This document shows positions 10,867-30,588 of a stretch of DNA of 64,000 bases, piece by piece. This DNA comes from a virus. The notes under the pieces were generated by a model, which made no database searches, was not told where the DNA came from, and saw only the letters and a program-made list of their open reading frames with translations. Location: IMG/VR virus record IMGVR_UViG_3300045988_071280, one strand, 5' to 3'. A program made the translations under genes and the position numbers. Each line of letters opens with the position of its first letter. The first letter of the stretch is position 1.

Positions 10867-11523
10867 ATGGAAAAAATCTCAATCTCATTAGATCGTGAAT
10901 TAGATCTAATGACACAATATAATCTATCAGCCGAGGAATGGTGGATTATACAATTATTATTCCTCGCTCAGTATCCAGAGGGAAGGATAGATCCTTTAGA
11001 AAGATATAGTAAAATTGTAGGCGGATTTAAATATAATATAATTGAATCTCTTCAATCTAAAGGAGTATTAAAAAAGATGGTTATTAAAAAAGGAGATCAT
11101 TTTGAGATAGATGATTTACAGTTTAATTATGTAAAAGGTGAAGATAAGAAAACATATCCATTAGATATTCCATTCACTGCTAATTTTATTAAGTCCTATT
11201 TAAAACATTCTGGGGAATTAGGGAAGGAATTGTTCCTAGAATATCCAAGTTTTATATACATTAATAATTCTCCTGTAAATGCTCGTAGTATAACGACTGG
11301 GAATCATTTCGGATCTATGGAAGATTTCTTTTTCTTTTACGGAAAGACTATCAAATGGAATCCAACATTACATAGAGAAATAATTGACCTGCTACAATGG
11401 GGAAAAGAAAATGATATGATAAAAATGGGGATTTCTACATTCGTTATTAACCAATCATGGATTGCTTTAAAAGAGGCTAGGGATAAGGGTATGGGATCGG
11501 TGGATATAAATACTCTTATATGA
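10867..11523 (+). CDS. hypothetical protein (possible helicase-associated factor)
   Basis: 218-aa ORF whose stop overlaps the helicase ATG (ATGA). The function is inferred from position only. Confidence 0.5.
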   Translation: MEKISISLDRELDLMTQYNLSAEEWWIIQLLFLAQYPEGRIDPLERYSKIVGGFKYNIIESLQSKGVLKKMVIKKGDHFEIDDLQFNYVKGEDKKTYPLDIPFTANFIKSYLKHSGELGKELFLEYPSFIYINNSPVNARSITTGNHFGSMEDFFFFYGKTIKWNPTLHREIIDLLQWGKENDMIKMGISTFVINQSWIALKEARDKGMGSVDINTLI

Positions 11524-11666
11524 ATTTAATTGATTCTTTTTATCAAAAAGTAGAAGAAGGGAAGAAAGGGAATAATATGGGTATACCATCTGGATTTCCT
11601 AAATTGGATAAGTATATATATGGTATACAAAGAAGGTTTATGAGCACAGTTATTGCCGATTCGGGT
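11520..11666 (+). CDS. DnaB-like replicative helicase, exon 1 (49 codons)
   Basis: MNLIDSFYQKVEEGKKGNNMGIPSGFPKLDKYIYGIQRRFMSTVIADSG. It is too short for the ORF track and ends in the first half of Walker A. Confidence 0.8.
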
Positions 11667-11979
11667 AAATTAAGTGCCCCTATTTAATACAAATAAATAG
11701 AAAACCATTTGAATTGCTAGGAACTCGCGAAGATTTAGTAACTAAAACATCAGAAGAAATTCTAAATGTGAATGTTAAAAATACTAAATTATGTGATAAT
11801 TAGCAGCTAAGCTCCTAAGGATGTAATCTATGGAGAAAGTTCAACGACTATCTCGAAAGAGAGTAGGGCTAAGTAGCTCGAAGCGGATGGTATAATATTT
11901 TAATATTATAATGAAATAGTCTAATCTTACACGAAAGTGTAAGAGTATATATGGAAACGATATATACGTAATATAATTG
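11667..11979 (+). mobile_element. ORF-less group I intron in the helicase gene (313 nt)
   Basis: P1 pairs GGGT with GCCC. Q-like TTAGCAGC; R GTTCAACGACTATC near 11839; S GAAATAGTCT near 11913. The intron ends ...TAATATAATTG|GCAGGT. Confidence 0.8.
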
Positions 11980-12960
11980 GCAGGTAAGAGTTCTGTGGCC
12001 ATATTTATGTATATCTATAAACCTTTAGTTTATTCCTTAGAACATCCAGAGATACCTGTAAATATTCTCGCATTAAGCTTTGAAATGTCAAAAGAAGTAC
12101 TTCTCGCTAAACTTCTCTCTCTTTATATCCTTGATAAATATCATATTGATATTAGTTATTCTGAAATATTCTCATTAGATAAACCTGTTTCAGACGATAA
12201 ACTTAAATATATCTATGATGCTAGGGATTGGTTAACTAAAATAGATGATAAATTAACTATCTACGATACTCCTTTAAATTCTACTGGAGTATATAATATC
12301 CTCAGAACATGGGCTGGATATTTTGGGAAGTTTGAAACAGATGATAATGGTGAGAGGTATATAAAGAATGATAAAAATCAGTATTTAATAACAGTATTAG
12401 ATCATTGTAAGTTATTAAAGAATAATGGTTCCGGAATTAAGCATGAGATAGATGAAACAGCTAAACATTTTATTTATTACCGTAATTTGTGTGATATGAC
12501 AATATGTGCTGTTCAACAAGCTAATAGACAATTTAAATCTATGGATAGAAGAAATTCCGAACATAATTATCTCGAATTACAAGATGCTCAGGATACTGCG
12601 GACATGACACAAGCATCAGAAATTGTTATTGGTGTCTATCATCCATTCAGAGAGAAGAAGGCTAAGTGTGAAGGGTTTGATATTAAGAAATTACGAGATA
12701 ACTTTAGGTTGATCCAATTGCTTAAAGGACGATTTGGACAGTCTGATGTTGTTGAGGGTTGTATTTTCCAAGGAAGTATAGGATATTTCAAAGAATTAGA
12801 TCCTCCCGAAGATGGAAAGAGATTTGATTACGATAGAGTTCTGAGAATGGATTATTTATTCGAAGAATTTGATAATCAACAAAAGAAAAAAGAAGAGTTA
12901 GATAGAGTTATTAAAGAAGATGAAGAAGATGAAGTACTTGAATTTAATTTTAATGTATAA
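11980..12960 (+). CDS. DnaB-like replicative helicase, exon 2
   Basis: Splicing gives ADSG|AGKSS (Walker A), with VLDH (Walker B-like) downstream. The tracked TTG start at 11977 is an artefact. Confidence 0.8.
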   Translation, partial: AGKSSVAIFMYIYKPLVYSLEHPEIPVNILALSFEMSKEVLLAKLLSLYILDKYHIDISYSEIFSLDKPVSDDKLKYIYDARDWLTKIDDKLTIYDTPLNSTGVYNILRTWAGYFGKFETDDNGERYIKNDKNQYLITVLDHCKLLKNNGSGIKHEIDETAKHFIYYRNLCDMTICAVQQANRQFKSMDRRNSEHNYLELQDAQDTADMTQASEIVIGVYHPFREKKAKCEGFDIKKLRDNFRLIQLLKGRFGQSDVVEGCIFQGSIGYFKELDPPEDGKRFDYDRVLRMDYLFEEFDNQQKKKEELDRVIKEDEEDEVLEFNFNV

Positions 12961-17068: not shown

Positions 17069-17513
17069 ATATAAAAACGAATATGAATCGAGCATAAATA
17101 GTGCTATTTTACGATGTTTAAATACTTGTACTTCTACTAATGATAAAGAGGGATTTTTAAGTCTTATATATTATCTCAAAGAAAAGTATGAAGTCGAAAT
17201 GTATGATATTGAATACTATATTCTGTGTGCATTTCAAAATGATTCAATAGATAGAGTTCTAGGAAATGTATATGAGAGTATATTTAATGAAATAATTAAG
17301 AGTTTATTAGATGATGATGCTTGTGATATATGCAATTTCATAAGTTATCATATTTCAAATATTAATTCCGAGTTTGGATTATCTATAGAATATTTTACAT
17401 ACGAAAATTTTTTAGAGGGAAGAAAGTTCTTTTTTAGTTTAGAAGAACTTCTTCCAGATATTACTATACATGAAACTATAGATGGAGAACTGCAAGATAG
17501 AACTAATATCTAA
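17052..17513 (+). CDS. hypothetical protein
   Basis: 153-aa ORF in the operon. Confidence 0.45.
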   Translation: MKNIIEYKNEYESSINSAILRCLNTCTSTNDKEGFLSLIYYLKEKYEVEMYDIEYYILCAFQNDSIDRVLGNVYESIFNEIIKSLLDDDACDICNFISYHISNINSEFGLSIEYFTYENFLEGRKFFFSLEELLPDITIHETIDGELQDRTNI

Positions 17514-18276
17514 AGAAGTATTATCTAAATTTAAGATAAAAATATTATCAATAAATAGTTTAGATATAACTGATGAAGTATATTTTTCTGATAAATATTC
17601 TAATTATATATCTAATTCTAAATTAAAACTGATAAATCCTAATGAAGGAGGATCATTTAAAACATATTTAGAAGGATTAAAATCTAAATTTACCGGATCT
17701 TTAGATTTAGGATCGGCGGTTCATGAGTTAATTCTACAAAATGAATCGTTTGAATTAAATTCTTATACCAAATTATCTGGTAAAATTGGGAAAGTTATAG
17801 AGGTTGTATTTAAATATAGAAATAAGGGATATTCCATATTAAATGCAATTCGAAAAGCTTCCGAAGAAGTTTCTTATTACATATCTCAATTAACTGATAC
17901 AAGAATATCTAATATAATCTCATCTGGATTTAAATATTATCTTTATTTATATAAAAATAAAGATGTTAAATATGATAAAGAACAAATAATCTTGGATGAG
18001 AAATCTAGGGAAACTTGTATAAAATGTGTAGATTCTATTAGAAGAAATTCTGATGCAATGAATCTCCTTTCCCCAGATGAATTTTCATTAGATCAGTATT
18101 TAAATAAGAATGAGGATACTATTATAATAGAAATTTTAGTATCATTTCCTAATAGTTTAAATAATCCAAATGCACCCATTGTTGAGATTCCTTTAAAACT
18201 AAAAGCTAAGATAGATAATTGGAATTTAAATATAAATGAAGGTATTCTTAATTTAAATGATTTAAAGACTACTGGT
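17482..18276 (+). CDS. PD-(D/E)XK exonuclease (RecE/DUF3799-like), exon 1
   Basis: YISNSKLKLIN...LDLGSAVHELILQ, with the ORF breaking in LNDLKTTG| (D-x-K-T-G nuclease motif). Confidence 0.6.
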
Positions 18277-19551
18277 AAGTAAATTTTTTTTATTGTATTT
18301 TATTTGTTTTATTTCATTAAATGTATTTAATTTGTATATTATTAAATAATACAATAAAAATACATTTATGAATAATTTAAATCAAGCTATTAGTGATTAT
18401 GAACATTTATTTATAGGAATTTGTGAATTAAGTAAAAAATATAAAATTCCTAATAAAGAAATTAGAAAAGCGTTAGAAGATAAAGGATATTATTTAGGAA
18501 AAGGAGTATCTCCAAAAAGTGTTGTGCATATTAAACTTGCAGTAGAGGAATATAAAAATATTCTTAATGCTGGTGAAGAACCTAATATTCATCAACTGGC
18601 ATTAAAGTATGATATTTCCGATACGTCTATAAAAGACAATTTAATTAGATTAAATCTTCCTGTTGTAAGATACCCTAAAAAAATCCATTTTGATGAACAT
18701 GTCTTTGATGTTATAGATACTGAAGAAAAAGCATATTGGCTAGGATTTTTAACTGCTGATGGGTATATTTGTAGTAGAGATAATACATTTGGAATTGGTC
18801 TAGCTAGTATAGATAAGCATCATGTAGAAAAATATGCCACATTTCTTAAATGTCCTCAACATGTTAAATTTAAGAATAACGAACATGCTGGAATATATAG
18901 ATGTGATTTAGGAAACGCTCATGTAAAGCAAGTATTACAAAAATATGGATTTACTGCTTCTAAATCTTTTGACTGTACCTTTTTAAAAGACCAGTTTTTT
19001 GCAAATTCCGATTTAATAAGACATTATATTAGAGGATATTTTGATGGAGATGGCTGTGTCAGTTATAAAAAAAAGTATAGAAAAACAATTAATGCCACTA
19101 TTTATATTCCGATAGTTTCTATAGTTGGAACAGAAGCTTTTTTACAAGAATTAAGAAATAAATCAAGTTTAATTTGTCTTTTTCAGTCACAACAAAATTT
19201 ATGGAATTTATATGGATCTGGAAAAAAGGCAAAAGATTTTCTTTATTACATTTATAATAACGCTACTATTTATCTAGATAGAAAATACAATATTTATAAA
19301 AATTATATTGCCCCACACTTAGAGAAATCGAGTGTTCCGCAGTGGCCAATATCGGTAGATACTGAAATGTAAATACCGAGATAAATTCAGAGATCACGAA
19401 AGGCTCTGAATCATCGTAACGCGTAGAAGGTGAATAAATATAATCCTTCCAAGAGTGGCTGCCACCTTAAAGGGTGAAAATGTACGCTGAACTATATCGA
19501 ATAACAAGATATAGAAATAAAGGATAAAAAGCCTTTATGATAACAAAATTG
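18277..19551 (+). mobile_element. group I-like intron, family 2 (about 1275 nt), carrying a LAGLIDADG endonuclease
   Basis: Structured 3' region 19373-19551 with ATCGTAACGCGTAGAA / GTACGCTGAACTAT pairing (GCGTA/TACGC) and hairpins that covary with the intron at 22754-24063. Ends ...TAACAAAATTG|AAACCA. The 5' site is set by phase and the shared TGGT|AAA junction. Confidence 0.65.
18368..19372 (+). CDS. LAGLIDADG homing endonuclease
   Basis: IDTEEKAYWLGFLTADGYI and IRGYFDGDGCVSY. Homologous to 22855..23910. Confidence 0.85.
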   Translation: MNNLNQAISDYEHLFIGICELSKKYKIPNKEIRKALEDKGYYLGKGVSPKSVVHIKLAVEEYKNILNAGEEPNIHQLALKYDISDTSIKDNLIRLNLPVVRYPKKIHFDEHVFDVIDTEEKAYWLGFLTADGYICSRDNTFGIGLASIDKHHVEKYATFLKCPQHVKFKNNEHAGIYRCDLGNAHVKQVLQKYGFTASKSFDCTFLKDQFFANSDLIRHYIRGYFDGDGCVSYKKKYRKTINATIYIPIVSIVGTEAFLQELRNKSSLICLFQSQQNLWNLYGSGKKAKDFLYYIYNNATIYLDRKYNIYKNYIAPHLEKSSVPQWPISVDTEM

Positions 19552-19863
19552 AAACCATGGTATTTATTCCCAGGATCTATAGTAAATGAAACTGGAGAAT
19601 TTGTTGAAGGGTCCTTCCAGCATTATCATTATTATCGCCAATTAGGTATGTATTACTGGATGTTATTATCTTATTTAAATTCTGAGAATTATGTAGTATC
19701 TAAATCATATTTAAATATTATATCAGTGCAAACTATTCCTAATTATTCTACTGTAGTATTTAGAATCCCGAATAAATGGTTTATTAAAGGATTAAAAGAA
19801 TTTAAAACATTATTATCTTACGCAGCTTATGCTGAATATAATAAAGAAAAAATATTATCATGA
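19552..19863 (+). CDS. PD-(D/E)XK exonuclease, exon 2
   Basis: Continues KPWYLFPGS...QHYHYYRQLGMYYW in phase 0. The tracked ATG at 19537 lies inside the intron. Confidence 0.6.
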   Translation, partial: KPWYLFPGSIVNETGEFVEGSFQHYHYYRQLGMYYWMLLSYLNSENYVVSKSYLNIISVQTIPNYSTVVFRIPNKWFIKGLKEFKTLLSYAAYAEYNKEKILS

Positions 19864-20267
19864 TTCCATATAGAGATGATGTTTTAATATCAGAACAAAT
19901 AGTACAAGATTTAGTCAATCAGTTTAATAACTTAACTCAAGAAGAAAAAGAAAGATTTTTTAAAAAGGTTTTATGTATTGGTTCTTTAGCTGTAGACTCT
20001 TTAGATACTGTTACAGCTTTAATATCTATACTTATTGCTATATATAGAAAATATGCTGAGAAGCATCCGGATGTTTCTATAGAGAAGTTTACTAAAGCAT
20101 TTTTAAAAGATACTATATCTACCTATGATGATTCATGGATGGAGAATTTTTTACCTTTATGTAAAGCCATTACAGATTGTAAAAAAGTAAATCTGTGTGG
20201 GGCAAAGAATCTTGAGGAATGTAAATCTAAGATAAATAGTGTATTAGATAAACTACTTCCATTTTAA
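19860..20267 (+). CDS. hypothetical protein
   Basis: 135-aa ORF with an ATGA overlap with the previous gene. Confidence 0.5.
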   Translation: MIPYRDDVLISEQIVQDLVNQFNNLTQEEKERFFKKVLCIGSLAVDSLDTVTALISILIAIYRKYAEKHPDVSIEKFTKAFLKDTISTYDDSWMENFLPLCKAITDCKKVNLCGAKNLEECKSKINSVLDKLLPF

Positions 20268-20341
20268 TATAGGAGTATCACTACTTTAGATAAAAACAAT
20301 ACCTCACTAGAAATTATTAATAAATTTTTAGTGATTAATAT

Positions 20342-20372
20342 TTTGATAACATTAAAAATCCCCTTATCTTTG
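20342..20372 (+). promoter_or_regulatory. Bacteroidota sigma-A type promoter (-33 TTTG / -7 TAnnTTTG)
   Basis: TTTG 20342-20345, a 19-nt spacer, then TATCTTTG 20365-20372, within the 170-nt non-coding gap upstream of 20438. Confidence 0.55.
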
Positions 20373-20437
20373 TACTATCAAATTAAGGGAAAATATAACA
20401 ACTTAAATATTTATTAACCTATAAAATTTTTAGAATT

Positions 20438-21016
20438 ATGGCAAAATTGTTTATGACCAATGTAAAAGGATTTAGTAAAGAAGAAGCAATGTGTGAACTT
20501 CCGTTAGAAATTAATCAAAATGCAACTGCAAAATGGCGTGCTGCTGGAGAACCTACTTTTGGTTCAGATGATTTCCGAGCATTCGCTGAGAACTTCATCA
20601 GCAACAAACATATGATTACTGGAGCTGGTGCTTATATTCAGAAAACTTCCCCTGTAGCTGATACTCGTACAAAACCTTATAAAATTGTAAACTTCAAGAA
20701 AGAAGGTAAGACTAAATGGGAAACTGTATATAATGTTTGTGAAGCAGAATTTAACTTGGATAAAGAAGGTAAATTTAAATCAATCGAATCAATTGGTATG
20801 CCTGTAGATCAATCTGCTGTTAATAAGGCTGATGCTGAACGTAAAATGCGTGAATTAATTGCTCAAAATAAACGTAATTATGTAGTAAGAAAGACTAAAG
20901 AAGTTGTTGAGGATGAAACTTCTAAGAACGGAGAAATCTTGTGTGCAGGTGTTTATACTCCGTCAATTACTACTAAACAAGGAGAATTTTATGTATTTGG
21001 ATTAGTTAAAGAATAA
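20438..21016 (+). CDS. hypothetical protein in a stand-alone transcription unit
   Basis: 192-aa ORF with its own promoter and a strong terminator. Codon choice is visibly shifted toward GCT/CGT/GGT. Confidence 0.65.
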   Translation: MAKLFMTNVKGFSKEEAMCELPLEINQNATAKWRAAGEPTFGSDDFRAFAENFISNKHMITGAGAYIQKTSPVADTRTKPYKIVNFKKEGKTKWETVYNVCEAEFNLDKEGKFKSIESIGMPVDQSAVNKADAERKMRELIAQNKRNYVVRKTKEVVEDETSKNGEILCAGVYTPSITTKQGEFYVFGLVKE

Positions 21017-21060
21017 TCTTGAATATAATAAAATATTTATACAAATATATAATTAATTAG

Positions 21061-21097
21061 AAGGGTGTAATATTAATTTATTACACCCTTTATTTTT
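21061..21097 (+). terminator. intrinsic terminator
   Basis: 12-bp perfect stem AAGGGTGTAATA/TATTACACCCTT, loop TTAATT, followed by TATTTTT. Confidence 0.7.
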
Positions 21098-21152
21098 AAA
21101 AACATAACAGTAATAATTTTAACAGTGTCGCTACTTAAAGCCGTGATTAAAT

Positions 21153-22310
21153 ATGAAACTAGAATTATCTAAATCGATCTTAGAATCTATCTCAAGTAGA
21201 GTAAATAATGATATTTTTACATTTGATGATGTAGAAAGTGAATATAAATTGGATAATATTCAAGAAAAGTTATATAATAGATTATATAAAAACTATCAGG
21301 ATTTAACTCCACCACAATTTGATTTAGATACGTTTAGATTTACATATAAAATACTTTGTCAAAACTCTGGAGTAAAAAAGACTCCTCAGAAACAATTAAA
21401 TAAAGTTAAGGATAGAAAAATTGTATATGATGCTACTACTGATGAATCTTTCGAAAGTAGAATTGTTGGTTCATCTGTAAGAGATGAAGAAGGTAAAGTA
21501 ACACATTATGAATTTAGAATCCTTATTAGAGATAAAGAATCTTTTGAAGGTACTCTCACGTTATCTGAAATGCAGGATATTTATGTTGGATATTCTAATA
21601 GAGGATATAATTTATCAGCTAGGAAATTGTCTGAGAAATTCCCACAATATGATTTGATTCAATTAAAGAAGATTTTAAGAGCGTTTCAGATTACTAAAGA
21701 TTGTTACCCATTTGCTCCACATATTGCAGAAAGTAAGAGTAAAGAGGAATTAGAAAGGATGTTATTAGATTTAAAATTACATTCTGCTTCTAAGAATGCT
21801 GATAGAGATGAGGTACAAGATAAGAATAAATATATCTTAGAATTAACTAAGGAACTTAATAAGTATAGAGATAAAGAAACATTTGTTAAGGATTTACTTA
21901 GAATTCCTGTTAAATATAATACTCCTATAACGCCTTTATATTCCGATGCTAATGAATATACTAATACGTTAGTTATATTCTTGTCTGATATGCATATCGG
22001 AGCTTATAATCCTAAATATGGATTTATACAATTGGAAGATTATAATAAAGAAGAAATTAGTAGGAGATTAGATAAAGTATATAATTTTATTATTAATAAA
22101 TTATTTGATAATTTAATTATCTGTAATTTAGGAGATAGTGTAGATTCTTATAAAGGTGAAACTGTTAGAGGTCATGAATTACCTACTACTATTACTCCAA
22201 AAGAACAATCTAAGATGTATTTAGATATTATGTTAGGGTTCTTTAATAAATTACTTGATTATGTAGAAAATTCTCATATTAAATACATCTGTATTGGAGA
22301 TTCAAATCAT
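21153..22310 (+). CDS. calcineurin-like metallophosphoesterase, exon 1
   Basis: LSDMHIGA (motif I) and NLGDSVDS (motif II). The ORF breaks in motif III (GDSNH|). Confidence 0.7.
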
Positions 22311-22618
22311 TGATTGTATTTAAATACAATTTGTGCTAATAATAAGAAATTATTATTTGAAACTAGGTTAACTGCTGGGACGCCTGAGATGGTAATCAGC
22401 AACCAAGCTACAGATTTAAATTCTGTAGAAGGCTCATCGACTATTCCTGAAATGGAAGTAGAATCAAGCGATTCGAAATGCCTAGCCCTTAGCATTATAT
22501 CTAATATAGATATAGATATAGATGAAGGTGAAGAGATAGTCAGTTCTCATATTAATAAGGAAGTATGAGGAGGTTTTATTAACCCATATAAGAGTAGCGA
22601 ACTTATATGAACATAAAG
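22311..22618 (+). mobile_element. ORF-less group I intron mpe-i1 (308 nt)
   Basis: Q-like TAATCAGCAAC; R GCTCATCGACTATTC near 22432; S AAGAGATAGTCAG near 22531. Ends ...GAACATAAAG|GATGGT. Splicing restores GDSNH|DGDW (GNHD). Confidence 0.8.
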
Positions 22619-22753
22619 GATGGTGACTGGGGATGGCTAAATAACGTTGTTCTTTCTGCTAAACTTAAAGAACTGAATATAGAATCCCACATTTCTGATC
22701 TTCCAATCGATAAATTTGATATCGGAAACAATTCTATATTATTCATGCATGGT
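22619..22753 (+). CDS. metallophosphoesterase, exon 2 (45 codons)
   Basis: DGDWGWLNNVVLSAKLKELNIESHISDLPIDKFDIGNNSILFMHG. The end could be 3 nt later (after GAT 22756). Confidence 0.65.
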
Positions 22754-22807
22754 GATATATTTTTCATATTTTTAATATAATTATTTAGTTTCCATGGAAA
22801 TAATTTA

Positions 22808-22815
22808 TATATTTG
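22808..22815 (+). promoter_or_regulatory. candidate -7 promoter element inside the intron
   Basis: TATATTTG lies 39 nt upstream of the endonuclease ATG. No clear -33 element. Confidence 0.35.
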
Positions 22816-22854
22816 TTAAATAATAATATATTTAATAAATAATAGAATTATAAC

Positions 22855-23910
22855 ATGGAAAAATTTTTAAATTTATTTTTGAGGAGTGAATTAAGTTTAC
22901 TCGATTTTTGTAAGCAATATAATCTATCTAGAGTTGAATTTGAAGGTTATATTAATGACAAAGGATATTATTGGAAGAATGGAAGGTCTGGCATAAAAGT
23001 TAACCTATTTAAACTGGCAATAGATGATTATGTAAATTCTTTAGAGAGTGTAGGAGCTTCTGCTAAAAGATTTGGAATTAATTCTCAATCTCTTAGTAAA
23101 GATTTAAAAGAATTAGATCTTTATGATGAATCCAGAAAAGGTAAGTCAATAAAAAAATATAATGAACGTATTTTTGATACTATTGACACAGAGGAGAAAG
23201 CATATTGGTTAGGATTTATCTTTGCTGATGGATATATATATTCATCCCCAATCGAAGAGAAAAAATCTAGAACAGATTGGAACTTTGAATTATGTGCTTC
23301 TGGTACTGATAAAGAACACATGGAAAAATTTGCCAAGTTTATAGGATACACTAAAGAATTAAAGATTACTAAAGCTGATAATAAAGGAAATACTAGATGT
23401 AGGGTATGTCTATCTAGTCAACATTTATGGGAAACACTTAATAGTTATGGTTGTACTCCTAGAAAATCTTTAACCTTAAAGTTCCCAAGTCTAAACATAT
23501 TTAAGGACGAGAGTTTAGTATGGGACTTTATAAGAGGTTATATAGATGGAGATGGGTGTATTTCATATGCAACTAAAGATCATTCTAAAATGCTCCTTTC
23601 CTTATTAGGAACAGAAGATTTTTTAAATTCTATACAAGATGTATTTTCTACTAAGTACACTTTGGAATATAATCATAATGATAAGAATTCTAAAACTAGA
23701 GTACTAGAAATAGCTTGTAGACCAGGGCTTAACATTTTACATAAATTATATTCACACTCAAAAATATATTTAAAAAGAAAATATGAAAGATATTTAGAAT
23801 ATTGCCGTCTATATGAGGAATCATATAGAGAATTAGAAACCAATAACGGGGAAGGCTGTGATGTCAATCCCGTGATAAGTACAGAAAGTAAAGAGTCTGT
23901 GCCATCGTAA
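22855..23910 (+). CDS. LAGLIDADG homing endonuclease
   Basis: IDTEEKAYWLGFIFADGYI and IRGYIDGDGCISY. The stop codon lies inside the conserved CATCGTAACGCG core element. Confidence 0.85.
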   Translation: MEKFLNLFLRSELSLLDFCKQYNLSRVEFEGYINDKGYYWKNGRSGIKVNLFKLAIDDYVNSLESVGASAKRFGINSQSLSKDLKELDLYDESRKGKSIKKYNERIFDTIDTEEKAYWLGFIFADGYIYSSPIEEKKSRTDWNFELCASGTDKEHMEKFAKFIGYTKELKITKADNKGNTRCRVCLSSQHLWETLNSYGCTPRKSLTLKFPSLNIFKDESLVWDFIRGYIDGDGCISYATKDHSKMLLSLLGTEDFLNSIQDVFSTKYTLEYNHNDKNSKTRVLEIACRPGLNILHKLYSHSKIYLKRKYERYLEYCRLYEESYRELETNNGEGCDVNPVISTESKESVPS

Positions 23911-24063
23911 CGCGTAGAACTTGAACCTCGAAAGAGAATAAAATAGTTCCAAGAGTGGTTTCTACCCCAACACTTTTATAAGTAGTGGGTAAAAAGGTAC
24001 GCTGGACTATAGCAAAAAGAAGCTATAGAAGTTAGGATAAAAAGCCTAACGATAACAAAATCG

Positions 24064-24360
24064 AAAGATAGCGATTCCCAGTTTAAAGGAATGCCTCTTA
24101 CATTGAATGATAGAACAATAAATTGGGTAAATGATTATATTTATGATTCTGGATTAAAATTTAAAGACAATCTCTATGTAGTAAAAGGAGATTTACATCA
24201 ATATGCTATAACAGAATCTAGAAGATTTCAATATATTTCTGTTCCAAGTTTATATGGATCTTCTAATTATATAGCTGCTAATTTTGGGAAGACTAAATGG
24301 GGAGTAGGTTTTATGGAAGTATTTAATGACCATGTAACAACTGGAGTAATTAAAGAATGA
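24064..24360 (+). CDS. metallophosphoesterase, exon 3
   Basis: KDSDSQFKG...VVKGDLHQY (GxxH-type motif V) in phase 0. Confidence 0.6.
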   Translation, partial: KDSDSQFKGMPLTLNDRTINWVNDYIYDSGLKFKDNLYVVKGDLHQYAITESRRFQYISVPSLYGSSNYIAANFGKTKWGVGFMEVFNDHVTTGVIKE

Positions 24361-24361
24361 T

Positions 24362-24913
24362 ATGATAAATGGAACGTTCGTAGGAGGGAATGCTAAAGTG
24401 ATAATTCCTCTAAGAGATAAAAAGAGTATTTATAAGTATTGCCAGGAACAAAAATATGATACTTCTTTACCATTAAGTTGTGATAGTTCTATTGGATTAA
24501 AATATACACTTTCTTTTCCAAAATCAAATGAACAATCTAATTATTTTATTCTTTTAAATCTTGATGAGGATTTACTTAAGATGTTTATAGAAAGGGAAAT
24601 GACTCTTGATGAAATTGTTTATATAGTTGAAGAATCAGAAAAGTTAGACGATTATGAATTATTTCTCTGTTGTTTATATTATTTTCATAATTATACTAAT
24701 TTAGAAAATTTTGAATATGCACTTAAATCTTTTTTATGTAAAGTAGAAGATGATGAAGATTATATAGATTTATATCTTAGTATATATGGAGATATAATAA
24801 AAGCAACACCATTATTTTCTAGATATATAGACTTTAAAAAGTTCTTTTTGGAACAGTATACCACTATTAGCTTTAATAATACAAACTATATATTTTTATA
24901 TGATAAAATTTAA
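24362..24913 (+). CDS. ArdA-like anti-restriction protein candidate, paralogue 1
   Basis: Acidic protein. The C-terminus SRYIDFKKFFLEQYTTISFNNTNYIF resembles the ArdA terminus (..YIDYQAYGRDL....IS.N.GIFE) from memory. Confidence 0.35.
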   Translation: MINGTFVGGNAKVIIPLRDKKSIYKYCQEQKYDTSLPLSCDSSIGLKYTLSFPKSNEQSNYFILLNLDEDLLKMFIEREMTLDEIVYIVEESEKLDDYELFLCCLYYFHNYTNLENFEYALKSFLCKVEDDEDYIDLYLSIYGDIIKATPLFSRYIDFKKFFLEQYTTISFNNTNYIFLYDKI

Positions 24914-25591: not shown

Positions 25592-26353
25592 ATGGAAATA
25601 ACTTTAGAACAATTATTAAAAGGAAAAGCAACGCAAATAGGAAAGAAAGAATTCTATTCTACTAAAGACTACATAGATCCCTTTCTTCAATCAATGAGTA
25701 AATTTACAGATGAATTTATATGTAAAGTAAAAGAGCCAAAACAGATTAGTATTGGAGAAGAAAAAGATATAATGTATAATAGAGTTTATATTCAAGCAGT
25801 TTTACCTAAAAGCTATTGGGAGTATGAAGATCATCAGCAAGTAATATCTTTAATTTATGGATTAGATTGTAAAGTCCCAGTAGTAAAAATTTTTAGGGGA
25901 GGGATTAATATGGCGTGTTTAAATCTTTGTGTGTTTAATGCTACATATTTAAATACACAAGTATTAGAGCCACAAAAGATGTATGATGTTTCTCCTATTA
26001 AAAACCTAATGAATTTAACAGATGATTTAGGAGTTAAGATTAAAAAATTAAAGAATACATTTATATCTAGAGATAAAGTAGATATGACTAATACTCTAGG
26101 TAAATGGGTAGATTTTTGTATTAAATCTGAGTATAAAAGTGATTTTGGAAAAGCTAAATTATCCCCAACTACTGCAATATCTGCATATAAAAATTTAGTT
26201 TTAAATCCCGACTCAGAGTATTATATTCCGGAAGATGAAGAAGTTTCGTTATTTACTGCATATAATGCATTTACTGAATTATTAAGGGATGATAAAGATG
26301 TTGTCAATCCTTTTGAAAAGAATTTACTTTTAAATAATTTATTTGAAATTTAA
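25592..26353 (+). CDS. hypothetical protein
   Basis: 253-aa ORF. No motif assigned confidently. Confidence 0.5.
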   Translation: MEITLEQLLKGKATQIGKKEFYSTKDYIDPFLQSMSKFTDEFICKVKEPKQISIGEEKDIMYNRVYIQAVLPKSYWEYEDHQQVISLIYGLDCKVPVVKIFRGGINMACLNLCVFNATYLNTQVLEPQKMYDVSPIKNLMNLTDDLGVKIKKLKNTFISRDKVDMTNTLGKWVDFCIKSEYKSDFGKAKLSPTTAISAYKNLVLNPDSEYYIPEDEEVSLFTAYNAFTELLRDDKDVVNPFEKNLLLNNLFEI

Positions 26354-26354
26354 T

Positions 26355-27092
26355 ATGTACAATGATCAATCTAATGCTTTAGGAGAATTTATTTTTCAAT
26401 CTAAATATGCTAGATATAATTCTAATCTGAAAAGGAAAGAGACCTTTGAGGAATCTGTAGATAGAATATTACAGATGCATTTAAAACATCTTAAAGATAA
26501 ATATCCAGAAGTATTAAATAATGCAGAATTTAATAATGATTTATTAGAAGCCTTTGAGGAGTATAAAAATAAAAATGTTTATGGATCTCAGAGAGCTTTG
26601 CAATTCGGAGGTGATCCTATTTTAAGAAAGAATGAAAAAATCTTCAATTGTTCATATACTTATATAGATGATCTTGAGAGATTTAAACAAATTGAGTATT
26701 TACTATTATGTGGTTGTGGAGTGGGATGTTCTGTTGAATATAAACATGTGAATACACTTCCTGAGATGGCAGAAGTACTTAATAGTTCAGTTGAAGAGTA
26801 TATAATCGAGGATAGTATTGAAGGATGGTCAAATTCTATAGATAGACTAATTCGATATTATTTTAATTCGGATATAGCATATCCTAGATTTGATTATTCT
26901 AAAATCAGACCTAATGGAAGTTTGATATCAGGAGGATTTTTAGCTCCTGGCCCTGATGGTTTAAGAAATGCTCTAAATAAAATAGACTCTTTACTTAATA
27001 TTATTCATAAAACTACTAAAAGATTATCTCCACTTAACTGTGCTGATATATTATCACACTGTGCTGATTCTGTTCTCAGTGGTGGCGTCCGT
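26355..27092 (+). CDS. nrdJ: class II (RTPR-like) ribonucleotide reductase, exon 1
   Basis: FQSKYARY..RKETFEESVDRIL resembles the monomeric B12-dependent RTPR N-terminus. Breaks at VLSGGVR|. ATG 26355 is preferred over the tracked TTG at 26343. Confidence 0.7.
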
Positions 27093-27317
27093 TAGACATT
27101 GGCGGCTTATAATAGTAATATTATAATGATAATTCTGTGAATTCAGGGAATATCTTATATAGATAAGACAATCCTGATCCAAGCACTTAAATATAGTGAA
27201 GGAGCAACGACTATCCCAGACGTGGGAGTAGGGTAATATCATCTACCCGAAGCGCAGAACATCCTATTAAAGGATGATGATATAGTCTAAACTATATAGT
27301 GATATATAGAGTCTTTG
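27093..27317 (+). mobile_element. ORF-less group I intron rnr-i1 (225 nt)
   Basis: R GAGCAACGACTATCC near 27203 and S GATGATGATATAGTCT near 27275. A P9 hairpin CTATATAGTGATATATAG precedes ...AGTCTTTG|CGATGT. Confidence 0.75.
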
Positions 27318-28737
27318 CGATGTCTACGTGGAGACGATGATATAATAACTAATAAAGGATTAGTTAAATTAAAAAATATTAAAAATGGAGATTTAGTATT
27401 AACACATGATGGATCTTTTCAAAAAGTTATTAACAAGGAAAATAATGGGATTAGAAAAGTAGATAGAATAACTACGAATTTAAATATAAATTATTCTACA
27501 AATAATCATAGGTGGTTAGTATTAAATAATCTTTCTGGAGAATTTAAGGAAGTGTATGCATCAGATTTAAAAGAGGGGGATGTTTTATTATTAAATAACA
27601 GAAGTGTATCAGGAGAATATCAGGATTTTCCTAAATATACTGATTTAAAATTACCTAAATTAGATGAAGATTTAGCTTGGTTTATTGGATATTTCTTAGG
27701 GAATGGTAATGTATCTACTAGAACTAGATCTGATACTGGGTTTGAAGATAATAAATTTAGAGTTTGTATCCCAACTAATTACCCTACTATAGTTAATAAG
27801 GTAAAGAGTATCTTTGAAAAAATTGTTGGAACATATAGTATACATAAAAAGAAAAGTGCTATAGAACTTACATCAAGTAAAAAGTGTTTTGTTGAATATT
27901 TTCTAAATATCAAACAACCTAATACTCCAATCCAAATTCCGGATTTTATAAAACAGAATACATCATCTATACAATTAGCATTCTTAGCTGGAGTATTAGA
28001 TTCAGATGGAAGTGTTAGAAATGATAATAAGAATGGAAAAGGATATGGACAAATTACTTTAAATAGTTCTAAATATTCTATATTTATTACTCAACTTCAA
28101 GCTTTATACAATTTAAATGGAATTATTACTAAGACTCAAACAAAAATTAGAAAAGGAAAATCTAATGAGTATATTCTTAAAACAGTTTCATTTAAATATA
28201 GAAAAGAATGTGTAGAGAAATTAAGTCTATATTCCGAAAAGCTTAAGGAAGATTATATTTTAGAAGAAATTTCTAAAGAGAAAGACGGAATTTATTTTCC
28301 TAAATATTTAGCAATAAGAGGAGAAGGTAATAAGATTTGGAATAGTTGTAAAAGATGTTCTTTAAATAAAGTATTAGAATATTATCCAGATTTAAATTAC
28401 ATTCCTGCTGTAATTACTAATATAGAAAAGGACGTTGAAGAAGTAGAAGTATTTGATATAGAAGTAGAAAATAATCATAACTTTTATGTAAATGGAGTAC
28501 TAACACATAATTCTGCTTTAGCTATATTATTCTCTCCTAATGATGAGGAGATGTATAATTCTAAAGTAGGTAATTGGTTTTATGATAATCCTCAACGTGG
28601 AAGATATAATGCTTCTGTTGCTTTGGAGAGAAGTGATGATAATAAAGAAGTATTTAATAAAATCTTTGAATCTACTAAAGAATATGGAGAACCTGGGTTT
28701 TTCTTTAGGTCTGATTCTGGTATAGGATGTAATCCAT
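27318..28737 (+). CDS. nrdJ: RNR exon 2 (one Arg codon, intein, then SALAILF...GCNP + T)
   Basis: GGVR|R followed by the intein, then SA..., which completes the GGxRRSA motif. The exon ends with the first base of a Cys codon (phase 1). Confidence 0.75.
27321..28511 (+). mobile_element. LAGLIDADG intein (397 aa) in the RNR
   Basis: Starts CLRGDDDIITNKGLV with TNNHRW (block B-like). Has LAWFIGYFLGNGNV and LAFLAGVLDSDGSV. Ends FYVNGVLTHN, followed by extein Ser. Confidence 0.85.
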
Positions 28738-29007
28738 AAAATGATGTGGCTATATATAGTGATATATATAGAAAACTAGGCTAATTCGGGGAATCTCTTA
28801 TTTAATAAGACAATCCCGAGCTAAGTGATTAAATATTTAATCTAAATGTGTAACGACTATCCTGAAAAGGAGTAGAACCAAGTGGTTCGAAATGCCTAGC
28901 GTCTTATATTAAATATATAAGATGATGATATAGTCTAATCTCTATAGTGATATAGAGGATCTTTAATTAGATCAGATAAGAAGTAACGAGCTTATCTTAA
29001 TATAATG
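28738..29007 (+). mobile_element. ORF-less group I intron rnr-i2 (270 nt)
   Basis: P1 pairs CCAT with GTGG (28746-28749). R TGTAACGACTATCC near 28849 and S GATGATGATATAGTCT near 28921. Ends ...TAATATAATG|GTTTTG. Splits a TGT codon (T|GT), giving NPCFEIGF. Confidence 0.75.
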
Positions 29008-29481: not shown

Positions 29482-30516
29482 ATGAAATCACAATTAATAA
29501 TCAAATTAGAAAATTTAAAAAATTTAAAAACTCTTGTTGAAGAAGAACTATATTCTGCAAAGGATATATGTAACTTTCTAGAATTACCAGAAGAAAAAAA
29601 TACTATTAGAAATATTAATAGTTACTTAAGACGATATAAAATAAAGTCTCCTTATCCAAAAATAACAGATCGTAATTCTAGAATTATAGAAAAATATAAA
29701 TCAAAAGTACCTGAATGGTGGAATCATCCAAAATTAAAAACTGTAATTGAATTTAAACTAAAAAATAATTTAGTTATAAATTATGCAGATAAGGATAAAA
29801 AAATTGCTAGATATGTAATCTCTGTAAAATATCATCCAAGAGCTTCATCTGCAAATCAAGTAAAGGCTCATATTATATTATGGGAATTACATAATAAACA
29901 ATTATTTCCTGATAATTATGTAATGATTCCAAAAGACGGAAATTTTTTAAATTTAAATATTGATAATTTTGATGTAATGTCAAACGAAGAATATAGATCT
30001 ATCACAGCTACTAGTAAAAAAAATCATTTTTATACTACTGGTAGTAAATCTGGAGTATGTTATAAAGGAGGATGGAAAACTATCTCTAAAAAATTTCTTC
30101 AGACAAATACATCATGCGAAATATGTGGATGTTCAAATAAATATAAGTTAAATGTACATCATATAATTAGCTACTATTTATTTGATAAATCTAAGGATGC
30201 ACATTTTTTAGAAAACTTAATTTGTTTATGTGATTCATGTCATCAAAATCTACATTTAGGAAAATTAAACTTATTGGGCATCTTATCTGAAAAGATAAGA
30301 TTAAAACTTCTTAAATTGCTGGAAACACTTAAAGAAAAATTTAAAAATGATGATAAATTATTATTAGTAAATTTTTCAATTAAGTCAATCAGCAGCCAAG
30401 CTGATTTGAAATCAGAAGGTTCAACGACTATCTCGAAAGAGAGTACATCACAAGCTAATGGTGATGGAAATAGGAAGCATCTTAACTCAAATGAGAAAGA
30501 TGATGATATAGTCTAA
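29482..30516 (+). CDS. HNH homing endonuclease
   Basis: CEICGCSNKYKLNVHHII...NLICLCDSCHQNLH. The C-terminal ~40 codons are read from the Q, R and S core elements. Confidence 0.8.
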   Translation: MKSQLIIKLENLKNLKTLVEEELYSAKDICNFLELPEEKNTIRNINSYLRRYKIKSPYPKITDRNSRIIEKYKSKVPEWWNHPKLKTVIEFKLKNNLVINYADKDKKIARYVISVKYHPRASSANQVKAHIILWELHNKQLFPDNYVMIPKDGNFLNLNIDNFDVMSNEEYRSITATSKKNHFYTTGSKSGVCYKGGWKTISKKFLQTNTSCEICGCSNKYKLNVHHIISYYLFDKSKDAHFLENLICLCDSCHQNLHLGKLNLLGILSEKIRLKLLKLLETLKEKFKNDDKLLLVNFSIKSISSQADLKSEGSTTISKESTSQANGDGNRKHLNSNEKDDDIV

Positions 30517-30588
30517 TCTATATGGTGACATATAGCAGTTCATAGGAGAACGTATATAAGAGTTGCGTCTTATATAGAATATATAATG

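Follow-up and report, generated by a model that had tools for sequence, protein, structure and literature searches.

Two predicted IA-like group I introns with a shared guide in the exonuclease and phosphoesterase genes of a viral DNA stretch

The viral DNA stretch IMGVR_UViG_3300045988_071280 (64,000 nucleotides, hereafter the window) contains a PD-(D/E)xK exonuclease gene and a metallophosphoesterase gene, each interrupted by an insertion of 1.3 kb. Comparison of the two insertions with one another, with uninterrupted homologues and with related viral DNA makes it very probable that both are self-splicing group I introns of a single IA-like family, which would carry a LAGLIDADG gene in the loop of the first paired segment (P1) and share an internal guide. 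The only close match of the window in the phage collection was a crAss-like phage, and its relatives are found on contigs of 137-164 kb. That a crAss-like phage dense in introns should contain two related group I introns is, in itself, expected; the present analysis adds the fold and guide of a phage ribozyme family that is widespread but missed by the Rfam model, a working model of that family, and corrected annotations of several split genes.

Interrupted genes and predicted ribozyme fold

The exonuclease reading frame meets a stop at position 18282, after ..DLKTTGK, and restarts at 19552 as KPWYLF... When 18276 is joined to 19552, an exonuclease of 368 amino acids is obtained. Three uninterrupted homologues (P0001-P0003) are also exactly 368 amino acids long, show 95, 90 and 86% identity to the spliced product, and align with it without gaps across TTG-KPW (DLKTTG-K[PMA]W; hyphens at splice sites mark the junction). 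The phosphoesterase frame is broken at 22753, after ..FMHG, and restarts at 24064 as KDSDSQ... Homologues of this protein (P0123-P0130) are continuous through HG-KD, and those that read through ..HGKD.. comprise six full-length sequences (46-51% identity) and one fragment (91% identity). The cr6_1 homologues of both proteins were too distant for junction mapping, and database homologues were used instead. Judged from the homologues, which restore ..DLKTTG-KPW.. and ..HG-KDS.., both insertions are real introns. Neither domain V/VI nor a long 5' RNA is present, stops occur in frame and the inserts are 1.3 kb long, which excludes a group II intron, an intein or translational bypass.

From protein alone the nucleotide boundary is ambiguous: that of the exonuclease could slide by 1-2 nucleotides, and in the phosphoesterase GGT-AAA and GG-GAAA encode the identical protein. 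The last intron nucleotide is a G in both window copies; this G, the U at position -1 and the pairing in P1 described below select TGGT-(intron)G-AAA as the junction in both genes. An identical TGGT-AAA junction had been deduced in the original prediction, which was made from the letters of the DNA alone, and it agrees with the homologues, with the rules of group I introns, with the P1 pairing and with an empty exonuclease site. A search for intron-less alleles yielded this empty site (L132), the DNA of which reads ACTACTGGT-AAAATGTGG, and the uninterrupted phosphoesterase homologues. Moreover, the exonuclease intron is absent from three close relatives (L128-L130, on contigs of up to 137 kb), and the phosphoesterase site of L128 holds a 282-nucleotide intron derivative devoid of an open reading frame (ORF). 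Such presence and absence is the pattern expected of mobile introns.

Over about 180 nucleotides at their 3' ends, the two introns align with long identical runs (19373-19551 versus 23885-24063), an alignment in which the coordinates and shared blocks of the original prediction were recovered, whereas about 90 nucleotides at their 5' ends are AT-rich and unconserved. The shared block represents the P6-P9.1 portion of a group I ribozyme, the core of which begins about 60 nucleotides further 5', within the final part of each LAGLIDADG ORF. From 5' to 3', the fold comprises P3, an A-rich joining segment (J3/4), P4-P5-P4', a long P6, J6/7, a bulged P7, P7.1, the sequence CAAGAGU, P3', P8, J8/7, P7', P9, P9.1 and a tail whose last nucleotide is G (Table 1). 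The upstream strand of P3, found by comparing copies side by side, consists of 6 nucleotides that pair with the 6 nucleotides right after CAAGAGU. The two strands read UCGAGC/GCUCGA, UCCCGU/GCGGGA or CAGGGC/GUCCUG among family copies, GUGGCC/GGCUGC in the exonuclease copy and GAAACC/GGUUUC in the phosphoesterase copy. Since this helix crosses GCGUA/UACGC, the two make up the P3/P7 pseudoknot of group I introns. A first reading of the 3' block alone, with GCGUA/UACGC as P3 and without P7, was dropped once the true upstream strand of P3 had been found in the ORF tail. At the position equivalent to P2, other family members carry a covarying hairpin, mostly with a GNRA loop.

The fold was tested on a MAFFT alignment of 34 diverse family copies that had been fitted to no structure. 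The 52 proposed pairs showed standard pairing in 98.1% of the cells, compared with 70.5% in shuffled alignments and 31-41% when one strand was slid. As many as 41 of the 52 pairs changed on both sides, and none of 500 shuffles matched any of five measures. Per helix, pairing was found in 85-100% of the cells, with double changes. The P7 pair across the one-nucleotide bulge (columns 101/194) covaried, being AU in 16 copies, GC in 15 and CG in 3, and the next pair (columns 103/193) was G-C in all 34; a bulged P7 followed by an invariant G-C is, as far as the alignment tells, the arrangement of the guanosine site. P7.1 (19426-19449 in the exonuclease intron) was paired in 100% of the cells, and all five of its pairs covaried. 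P3 was retested with a covariance model built without it, which aligned 116 matches from 100 sources. In this P3-free alignment P3 paired in 84.6% of the cells (107 distinct sequences), as against 31-51% when slid; an ORF in P5 that displaces the upstream strand of P3 in some copies may account for the shortfall.

Three hairpins with compensatory changes had already been noticed in the original prediction and correspond to P9 (CTATATC/GATATAG versus CTATAGC/GCTATAG), P9.1 (AAAGG/CCTTT versus TAGG/CCTA) and P6 (ATTCAGAG/CTCTGAAT versus GTACAGA/TCTGTGC). The same prediction held that both introns lack the GACTAT/ATAGTC core; this is true of the sequence, but in P7, the equivalent helix, the strands read GCGTA/TACGC. 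Both introns can be folded as group I, with strong support.

Some single-stranded segments were nearly invariant across the family, namely 19431-19444, 19524-19531, 19393-19403 and 19539-19549 together with the homologous positions of the second intron. They represent the loops L7.1 (UGAAUAAAUAUAAU), L9.1 (AUAAAAAG) and L6 (AUYACGAAAGG) and the 3' tail (GAUAACAAAAU), and presumably engage in tertiary contacts.

The covariance model of the family gave exactly two strong matches in the window, of 220.6 bits (19342-19556) and 162.4 bits (23836-24068). It also matched, weakly and end to end, two introns that Rfam recognises as Intron_gpI (27133-27353 and 28776-28992; 31.7 and 28.7 bits, E ~1e-7), with P4, P6, P7 (GCGUA on GACUA), P8, J8/7-P7' (UACGC on UAGUC) and P9 in register. 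This register with accepted group I introns cross-checks the labelling of the helices. Model, fold and homologues concur with the earlier proposal that the two introns belong to one family, whose P7 is distinct from that of the GACTAT/ATAGTC introns in the window. The single P7.1 hairpin between P7 and the 3' strand of P3 suggests an IA-like subgroup.

Internal guide and endonuclease genes

The guide had escaped the original prediction. We found it in the 3' end of each endonuclease ORF, where it pairs with the shared junction nucleotides. In the exonuclease intron, P1 consists of the pairs G-C, G-C, U.G, A-U and A-U, and beyond a 3x3 internal loop nucleotides 18282-18288 can pair with 19298-19304, which adds an A-U extension of 7 base pairs (bp). 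The duplex has a free energy of -7.6 kcal/mol, compared with -4.3 for shuffles; that of the phosphoesterase P1 is -9.6 kcal/mol. The ORF-less intron of L128 starts as CAUGGU-GAUAUAAUAUAUAUCUAAUAUUGCCGUC, followed by CUAUAUGA-GGAA-UCAUAUAG, and its minimum-free-energy fold contains the 10-bp P1 (AUGGU-GAUAU with AUAUU-G-CCGU) and P2. Compact family members give the same P1 fold by minimum free energy. In the window copies the strands of P1 are separated by the endonuclease gene, so that the ORF lies in the P1 loop. The sequence UAUUGCC is common to both introns and codes for Tyr-Ile-Ala (YIA) in one ORF and for Tyr-Cys-Arg (YCR) in the other; since it is read in two frames, it is conserved at the RNA level. 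The pairing of the guide with GGU-AA explains the common TGGT-AAA junction. A guide in the AT-rich 90 nucleotides past the 5' splice site was also considered. No candidate was found there, and the ORF-less copies L003 and L128 show that this stretch is dispensable except for its first few bases.

Both ORFs contain two LAGLIDADG motifs per chain, YWLGF[LI].ADGY and IRGY[FI]DGDGC (LGFLTADGY and IRGYFDGDGC in the exonuclease intron), and match the Pfam families PF14528 and PF00961. They are homologous (32% identity, E 2e-45), as had been proposed before. The final 25 codons or so of the exonuclease-intron ORF overlap the guide, P2, P3, P4 and P5, and the 3' end of the phosphoesterase-intron ORF overlaps the guide and P2-P6. 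From their motifs and position, both are predicted double-motif LAGLIDADG homing endonuclease genes in the P1 loop.

Table 1. Positions of the two introns, their predicted helices and their ORFs in the window.
Feature	Position	Strand	Remarks
Exonuclease intron
Group I intron in PD-(D/E)xK exonuclease gene	18277..19551	+	exons 17482-18276, 19552-19863
LAGLIDADG ORF, 334 amino acids	18368..19372	+	Pfam LAGLIDADG_3, E 1.4e-9
P1 5' strand, exon GGU(18276) + intron AA	18274..18278	+	pairs with 19308-19312
Internal guide UU-G-CC	19308..19312	+	G19310 opposite U18276
P2 hairpin (ACACU..AGUGU)	19315..19335	+	read from sequence
P3 5' strand	19342-19347	+	pair counts; J3/4 next
P4	19352-19356 / 19375-19379	+	pair counts
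P5	19360-19362 / 19369-19371	+	pair counts
P6	19380-19392 / 19404-19415	+	pair counts
P7	A19419, bulged C19420, GCGUA 19421-19425 / UACGC-U 19483-19488	+	double changes
P7.1	19426-19430 / 19445-19449	+	double changes
P3 3' strand	19457-19462	+	P3/P7 pseudoknot supported by double changes
P8	19463-19466 / 19473-19476	+	double changes; J8/7 next
P9	19492-19498 / 19508-19514	+
P9.1	19519-19523 / 19532-19536	+
3' tail GAUAACAAAAUUG, ending in terminal G (omega-G)	19551 (omega-G)	+
Phosphoesterase intron
Group I intron in metallophosphoesterase gene	22754..24063	+	exons 22619-22753, 24064-24360
LAGLIDADG ORF, 351 amino acids	22855..23910	+	Pfam LAGLIDADG_1, E 1.7e-5
P1 5' strand, exon AUGGU(22753) + intron GAUAU	22749..22758	+	10-bp helix with 23799-23808
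Internal guide AUAUU-G-CCGU	23799-23808	+	UU-G-CC within 23802-23808; G23804 opposite U22753
P2 hairpin CUAUAUGA-GGAA-UCAUAUAG	23809-23828	+
Ribozyme core	23836..24063	+	pair counts; covariance model
P3	23836-23841 / 23957-23962	+
P4	23846-23850 / 23869-23873	+	P5 next
P6	23874-23906	+
P7	23910, 23912-23916 / 23998-24003	+
P7.1	23917-23921 / 23945-23949	+	extra inserted hairpin
P8	23963.. / ..23991	+
P9	24007-24013 / 24022-24028	+
P9.1	24033-24036 / 24045-24048	+
Omega-G	24063	+

According to this model, the RNA would fold as P1 (exon GGU and the first intron bases with the guide about 1 kb downstream), P2, the P3/P7 pseudoknot, P4-P6, P7.1, P8, P9 and P9.1. Following the established group I mechanism, a guanosine held in P7 beside the bulge would attack after U18276 or U22753, the terminal G (19551 or 24063) would then replace this guanosine in P7, and the freed exon would attack the 3' splice site to give TGGT-AAA. 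The seven shared junction nucleotides would be the footprint of the guide, GGU pairing with GCC in P1 and AA with UU in P10 or in an extension of P1. Spread from allele to allele would occur by homing through the endonuclease.

Several points weigh against the assignment of both insertions to self-splicing IA-like introns. The evidence for splicing is entirely comparative. The exonuclease P1 has only five contiguous pairs at the splice site, and 20 of 300 shuffles were equally good. The P10 candidate, 3' exon AA opposite the UU located 5' of the guide G, is read from sequence and amounts to 2 bp only, and the IA assignment is based on one criterion, P7.1. In addition, the Rfam model RF00028 gave no match in 18000-24400, even at E<=10, and in seven related loci Rfam never matched the family as group I, either at the gathering threshold or at E<=10. 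However, RF00028 also fails on two window insertions of the GACUAU/AUAGUC type, including one whose junction is verified by homologues, and the lack of a match therefore counts for little.

The silence of Rfam on 18000-24400, together with the annotation of homologous split genes as separate coding sequences in public records, would also suit the view that these are not ribozymes at all, but free-standing endonuclease genes splitting their hosts, or pseudogenes, with a 3' block that serves as a protein-binding or terminator element. We consider this view hardly credible. It leaves unexplained a 52-pair pseudoknotted fold with massive covariation, a block in register with recognised group I introns that always ends in G and is preceded by a U-terminated exon, exons that rejoin in frame with a residue-for-residue match to uninterrupted homologues, and ORF-less copies of 282-330 nucleotides that keep exactly P1-P9.1.

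Distribution of the family and route of spread

The ribozyme family occurs in over 100 viral contigs, among them isolated phages of Staphylococcus, Clostridium, Clostridioides, Bacillus and Leptolyngbya, metagenome-assembled genomes of Prevotella Lak phages, and crAss-like phages. When the 3' block served as a blastn query, 87 phage records were returned, whose hosts include all of these genera and several of which are crAss-like phages; the matches often lie between the halves of terminase, helicase, polymerase or tape-measure genes. An exact-pattern scan of IMG/VR found more than 120 DNA stretches. Split genes whose halves are separated by a family member and are annotated as separate coding sequences, with no intron annotated, include the helicase of cr118_1 (L003, 2365-2688), the ATPase of cr6_1 (L001, 3226-4293), the terminase large subunit of Staphylococcus phage SA2 (L006, ~2447-2672) and a RecD-like helicase of Bacillus phage PJN02 (L135, 1497 to 2721). 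Because the standard Rfam model misses the family, public records list a split helicase, terminase, ATPase and exonuclease as separate proteins, and the fold and covariance model would let such genes be rejoined.

Two further copies belong to the sub-family with a LAGLIDADG gene in P1. The copy in the cr118_1 helicase, at the GSG-K site TCTGGT-AAATCC, retains only a remnant of the ORF, and the other interrupts the P-loop ATPase of cr6_1 at the GTG-K site ACAGGT-AAGACT. The four sub-family sites (exonuclease, phosphoesterase, cr118_1 helicase and cr6_1 ATPase) are identical only at -5..+3. Site statistics were taken from compact members read from minimum-free-energy folds and from the four curated sites, and exon GGU was found opposite a GCC guide in 16 of 20 compact sites, whatever endonuclease was carried. 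An automated search for 5' splice sites in ORF-containing members, by guide complementarity and open frame, produced mostly false positives in AT-rich DNA and was dropped.

Other members differ in the ORF they carry. GIY-YIG-like ORFs (..KIYIGQT..) were observed in the P8 loop, past the 3' strand of P3 (L010, L016 and L021), and HNH ORFs in the P5 loop, ending just before the 3' strands of P5 and P4 (L007, L008 and similar copies). The occurrence of different endonucleases in different loops of one core indicates repeated, independent ORF invasion. Two or three family copies were found within about 10 kb in L088 (1839-2050, 6257-6446 and 11498-11700), L026 (three) and L056, L095, L069, L011, L053 and L067 (two each), from which it follows that multi-copy occupancy of one phage genome is common. 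In the terminase copies of cr7_1 (L004, 2400-2680), L092 and L068, the upstream frame ends as ..THNC DPL.., like the C-terminus of an intein, and the downstream exon frame (DDHDDSF..) requires one extra exon 1 nucleotide. In-frame TAG codons in cr7_1 suggest stop-codon recoding.

The original prediction had described the pattern as what ectopic spread by reverse splicing or illegitimate homing would leave. As a specific trace of ectopic movement between the two genes, the identical junctions were not supported: the endonucleases of the two window copies are only 32% and their ribozyme cores only 74.6% identical, GGU faces GCC in most compact sites, and two further crAss-like genes share the motif. 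The exonuclease core is nearer to copies on other contigs (79.0% identity to L095, 78.0% to L097) than to the phosphoesterase copy. The closest to the phosphoesterase core in the same set is L095 (75.7%), with the exonuclease copy second. On these identities, the two window copies are old relatives and not recent duplicates. Since functional copies must keep P1, junction identity shows a conserved guide, along with a tendency of the family to sit at GGU-A in many unrelated genes, and not a recent jump between the two genes. As it stands, the pattern fits equally well reverse splicing, DNA-level transposition followed by selection for P1, or endonucleases that prefer the central bases.

LAGLIDADG enzymes normally read about 18-22 bp. 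Unlike this usual target span, the four sites in unrelated genes show no extended similarity, and their identity is confined to the P1/P10 footprint, as would be left by ectopic transposition within the phage lineage through reverse splicing into UGGU-AAA mRNA, reverse transcription and recombination, with the seven nucleotides as a scar. Such a route would also suit a guide that is conserved and not adapted site by site, and the GGU preference shared by HNH, GIY-YIG or ORF-less members. Nevertheless, we regard it as unlikely. The copies are old, judging from both endonucleases and cores, and the exonuclease core has its nearest kin on other contigs. Moreover, P1 is needed however the intron arrived, so that selection alone would enrich GGU-A sites, and no reverse transcriptase turned up in the region examined, although no search was aimed at one. 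Reverse-splicing mobility of group I introns lacks direct evidence, according to a review (PMC3984707), which also recognises relaxed-specificity cleavage as a route to ectopic sites. The latter speaks for illegitimate homing, in which related LAGLIDADG enzymes would keep a central GGTAA preference while the flanks drift, and would cut new genes at the DNA level. GGT-AA is found at the insertion point in all four sub-family sites, each with a LAGLIDADG ORF or its remnant (cr118_1 keeps codons of the ORF tail, and gp43 of cr6_1 is annotated as an endonuclease). However, a position after GGU is also taken by members that carry HNH or GIY-YIG genes or lack an ORF, and the site motif cannot be predicted from the endonuclease family; illegitimate homing is thus a possible but doubtful explanation.

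The more general proposal, that the family keeps its UU-G-CC guide and colonises genes by reverse splicing at GGU-AAR (Gly-Lys codon pairs, including those of Walker A loops), likewise seems improbable to us, and would be notable if shown. If true, guided reverse splicing would explain why copies whose endonucleases are unrelated, or that have none, occupy the same short motif both in four or more unrelated genes of crAss-like phages and in numerous genes of phages that infect distant hosts. The pattern would then provide comparative evidence of unusual clarity for a pathway never shown directly in group I introns. Many independent sites that share only the guide footprint constitute a data set for RNA versus DNA routes of group I introns.

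Relation to known introns and other insertions in the window

With the phage introns of subgroup IA (T4 td/nrdB/sunY, Twort orf142, SPO1 DNA polymerase and the RF00028 introns of the window) the family shares the P3/P7 pseudoknot, P4-P6, a bulged P7, an extra pairing between P7 and P3', U-1, omega-G, an optional homing-endonuclease ORF in a peripheral loop and insertion in conserved phage genes. Unlike those introns, it has GCGUA/UACGC in place of GACUA/UAGUC as P7 and receives no score from RF00028; it has a single P7.1 hairpin with a nearly invariant loop of 14 nucleotides (UGAAUAAAUAUAAU), a conserved L9.1 (GAUAAAAAG) and a conserved 3' tail (GAUAACAAAAU); and the ORF of the window copies lies in the P1 loop, overlapping the guide and P2-P5/P6.

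Homologous group I introns at different sites have been described in prophages of the Bacillus cereus group (tape-measure IVS1/IVS2, IVS3 and terminase; IA1/IA2) (Tourasse and Kolsto, 2008, PMC2504315). As in our family, related ribozymes there, 65-80% identical, occupy different positions and genes, and endonuclease genes have been lost by internal deletion, leaving remnants. In a comparison by description, P1 and guide had diverged in that group to suit each site, whereas in our family the guide stays constant and its complement is common to the sites. By BLAST, the family is linked to phages of Staphylococcus, Clostridium and Bacillus through tape-measure and terminase genes, one of them the tape-measure gene of a B. 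thuringiensis phage. Large crAss-like genomes of the Delta and Zeta groups are dense in group I introns and inteins, which were detected via endonuclease domains (Yutin et al., 2021, PMC7886860). The window resembles them in having many genes interrupted by introns that encode LAGLIDADG and other endonucleases; RNA family, fold and guide are not described there. In nuclear ribosomal DNA (rDNA), the distribution of group I introns has been read as support for reverse splicing (Bhattacharya et al., 2005, PMC1299323). Related introns occur there too at heterologous sites, which resemble one another only in the few bases that pair with the guide. Those introns reside in abundant, stable rRNA, in contrast to the phage mRNAs that are the targets here; endonuclease genes are present in our case, so that a DNA route is equally available.

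Rfam recognises group I introns in the window at 27083-27309, 28728-28957 and 30256-30535 (99, 92 and 80 bits). The three are clustered downstream of an ORF starting at 26343, and the gene is apparently cut at least three times. The same phosphoesterase gene contains an additional ORF-less insertion of 308 nucleotides (22311-22618, CAT-TGATTG...ATAAAG-GATGGT), in which GACTAT/ATAGTC and CAGCAACCAAGC are present, as is typical of canonical group I introns of phages, and for which Rfam gave no match even at E<=10. Two relatives (P0121 and P0122) are continuous at its insertion point (GDSNHDGDWGW), and in another (L129) a LAGLIDADG ORF of 315 amino acids directly follows the first phosphoesterase exon. 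A DnaB-type helicase gene is also split, into ORFs 11520-11687 and 11977-12960 (..IADSG-AGKSS..), by an ORF-less insertion of about 310 nucleotides (~11668-11979). Rfam missed this insertion at the gathering threshold, and the family model matched it weakly (14.7 bits, E 0.014). This unrelated insertion also follows a site of this type, TCGGGT, with a nearby GCCC as a possible guide, and contains CAACGACUAUCUCGAAAGAGAGUAGGG...AAUAGUCUAAUC; from these motifs it is probably a canonical group I intron of the GACUAU type.

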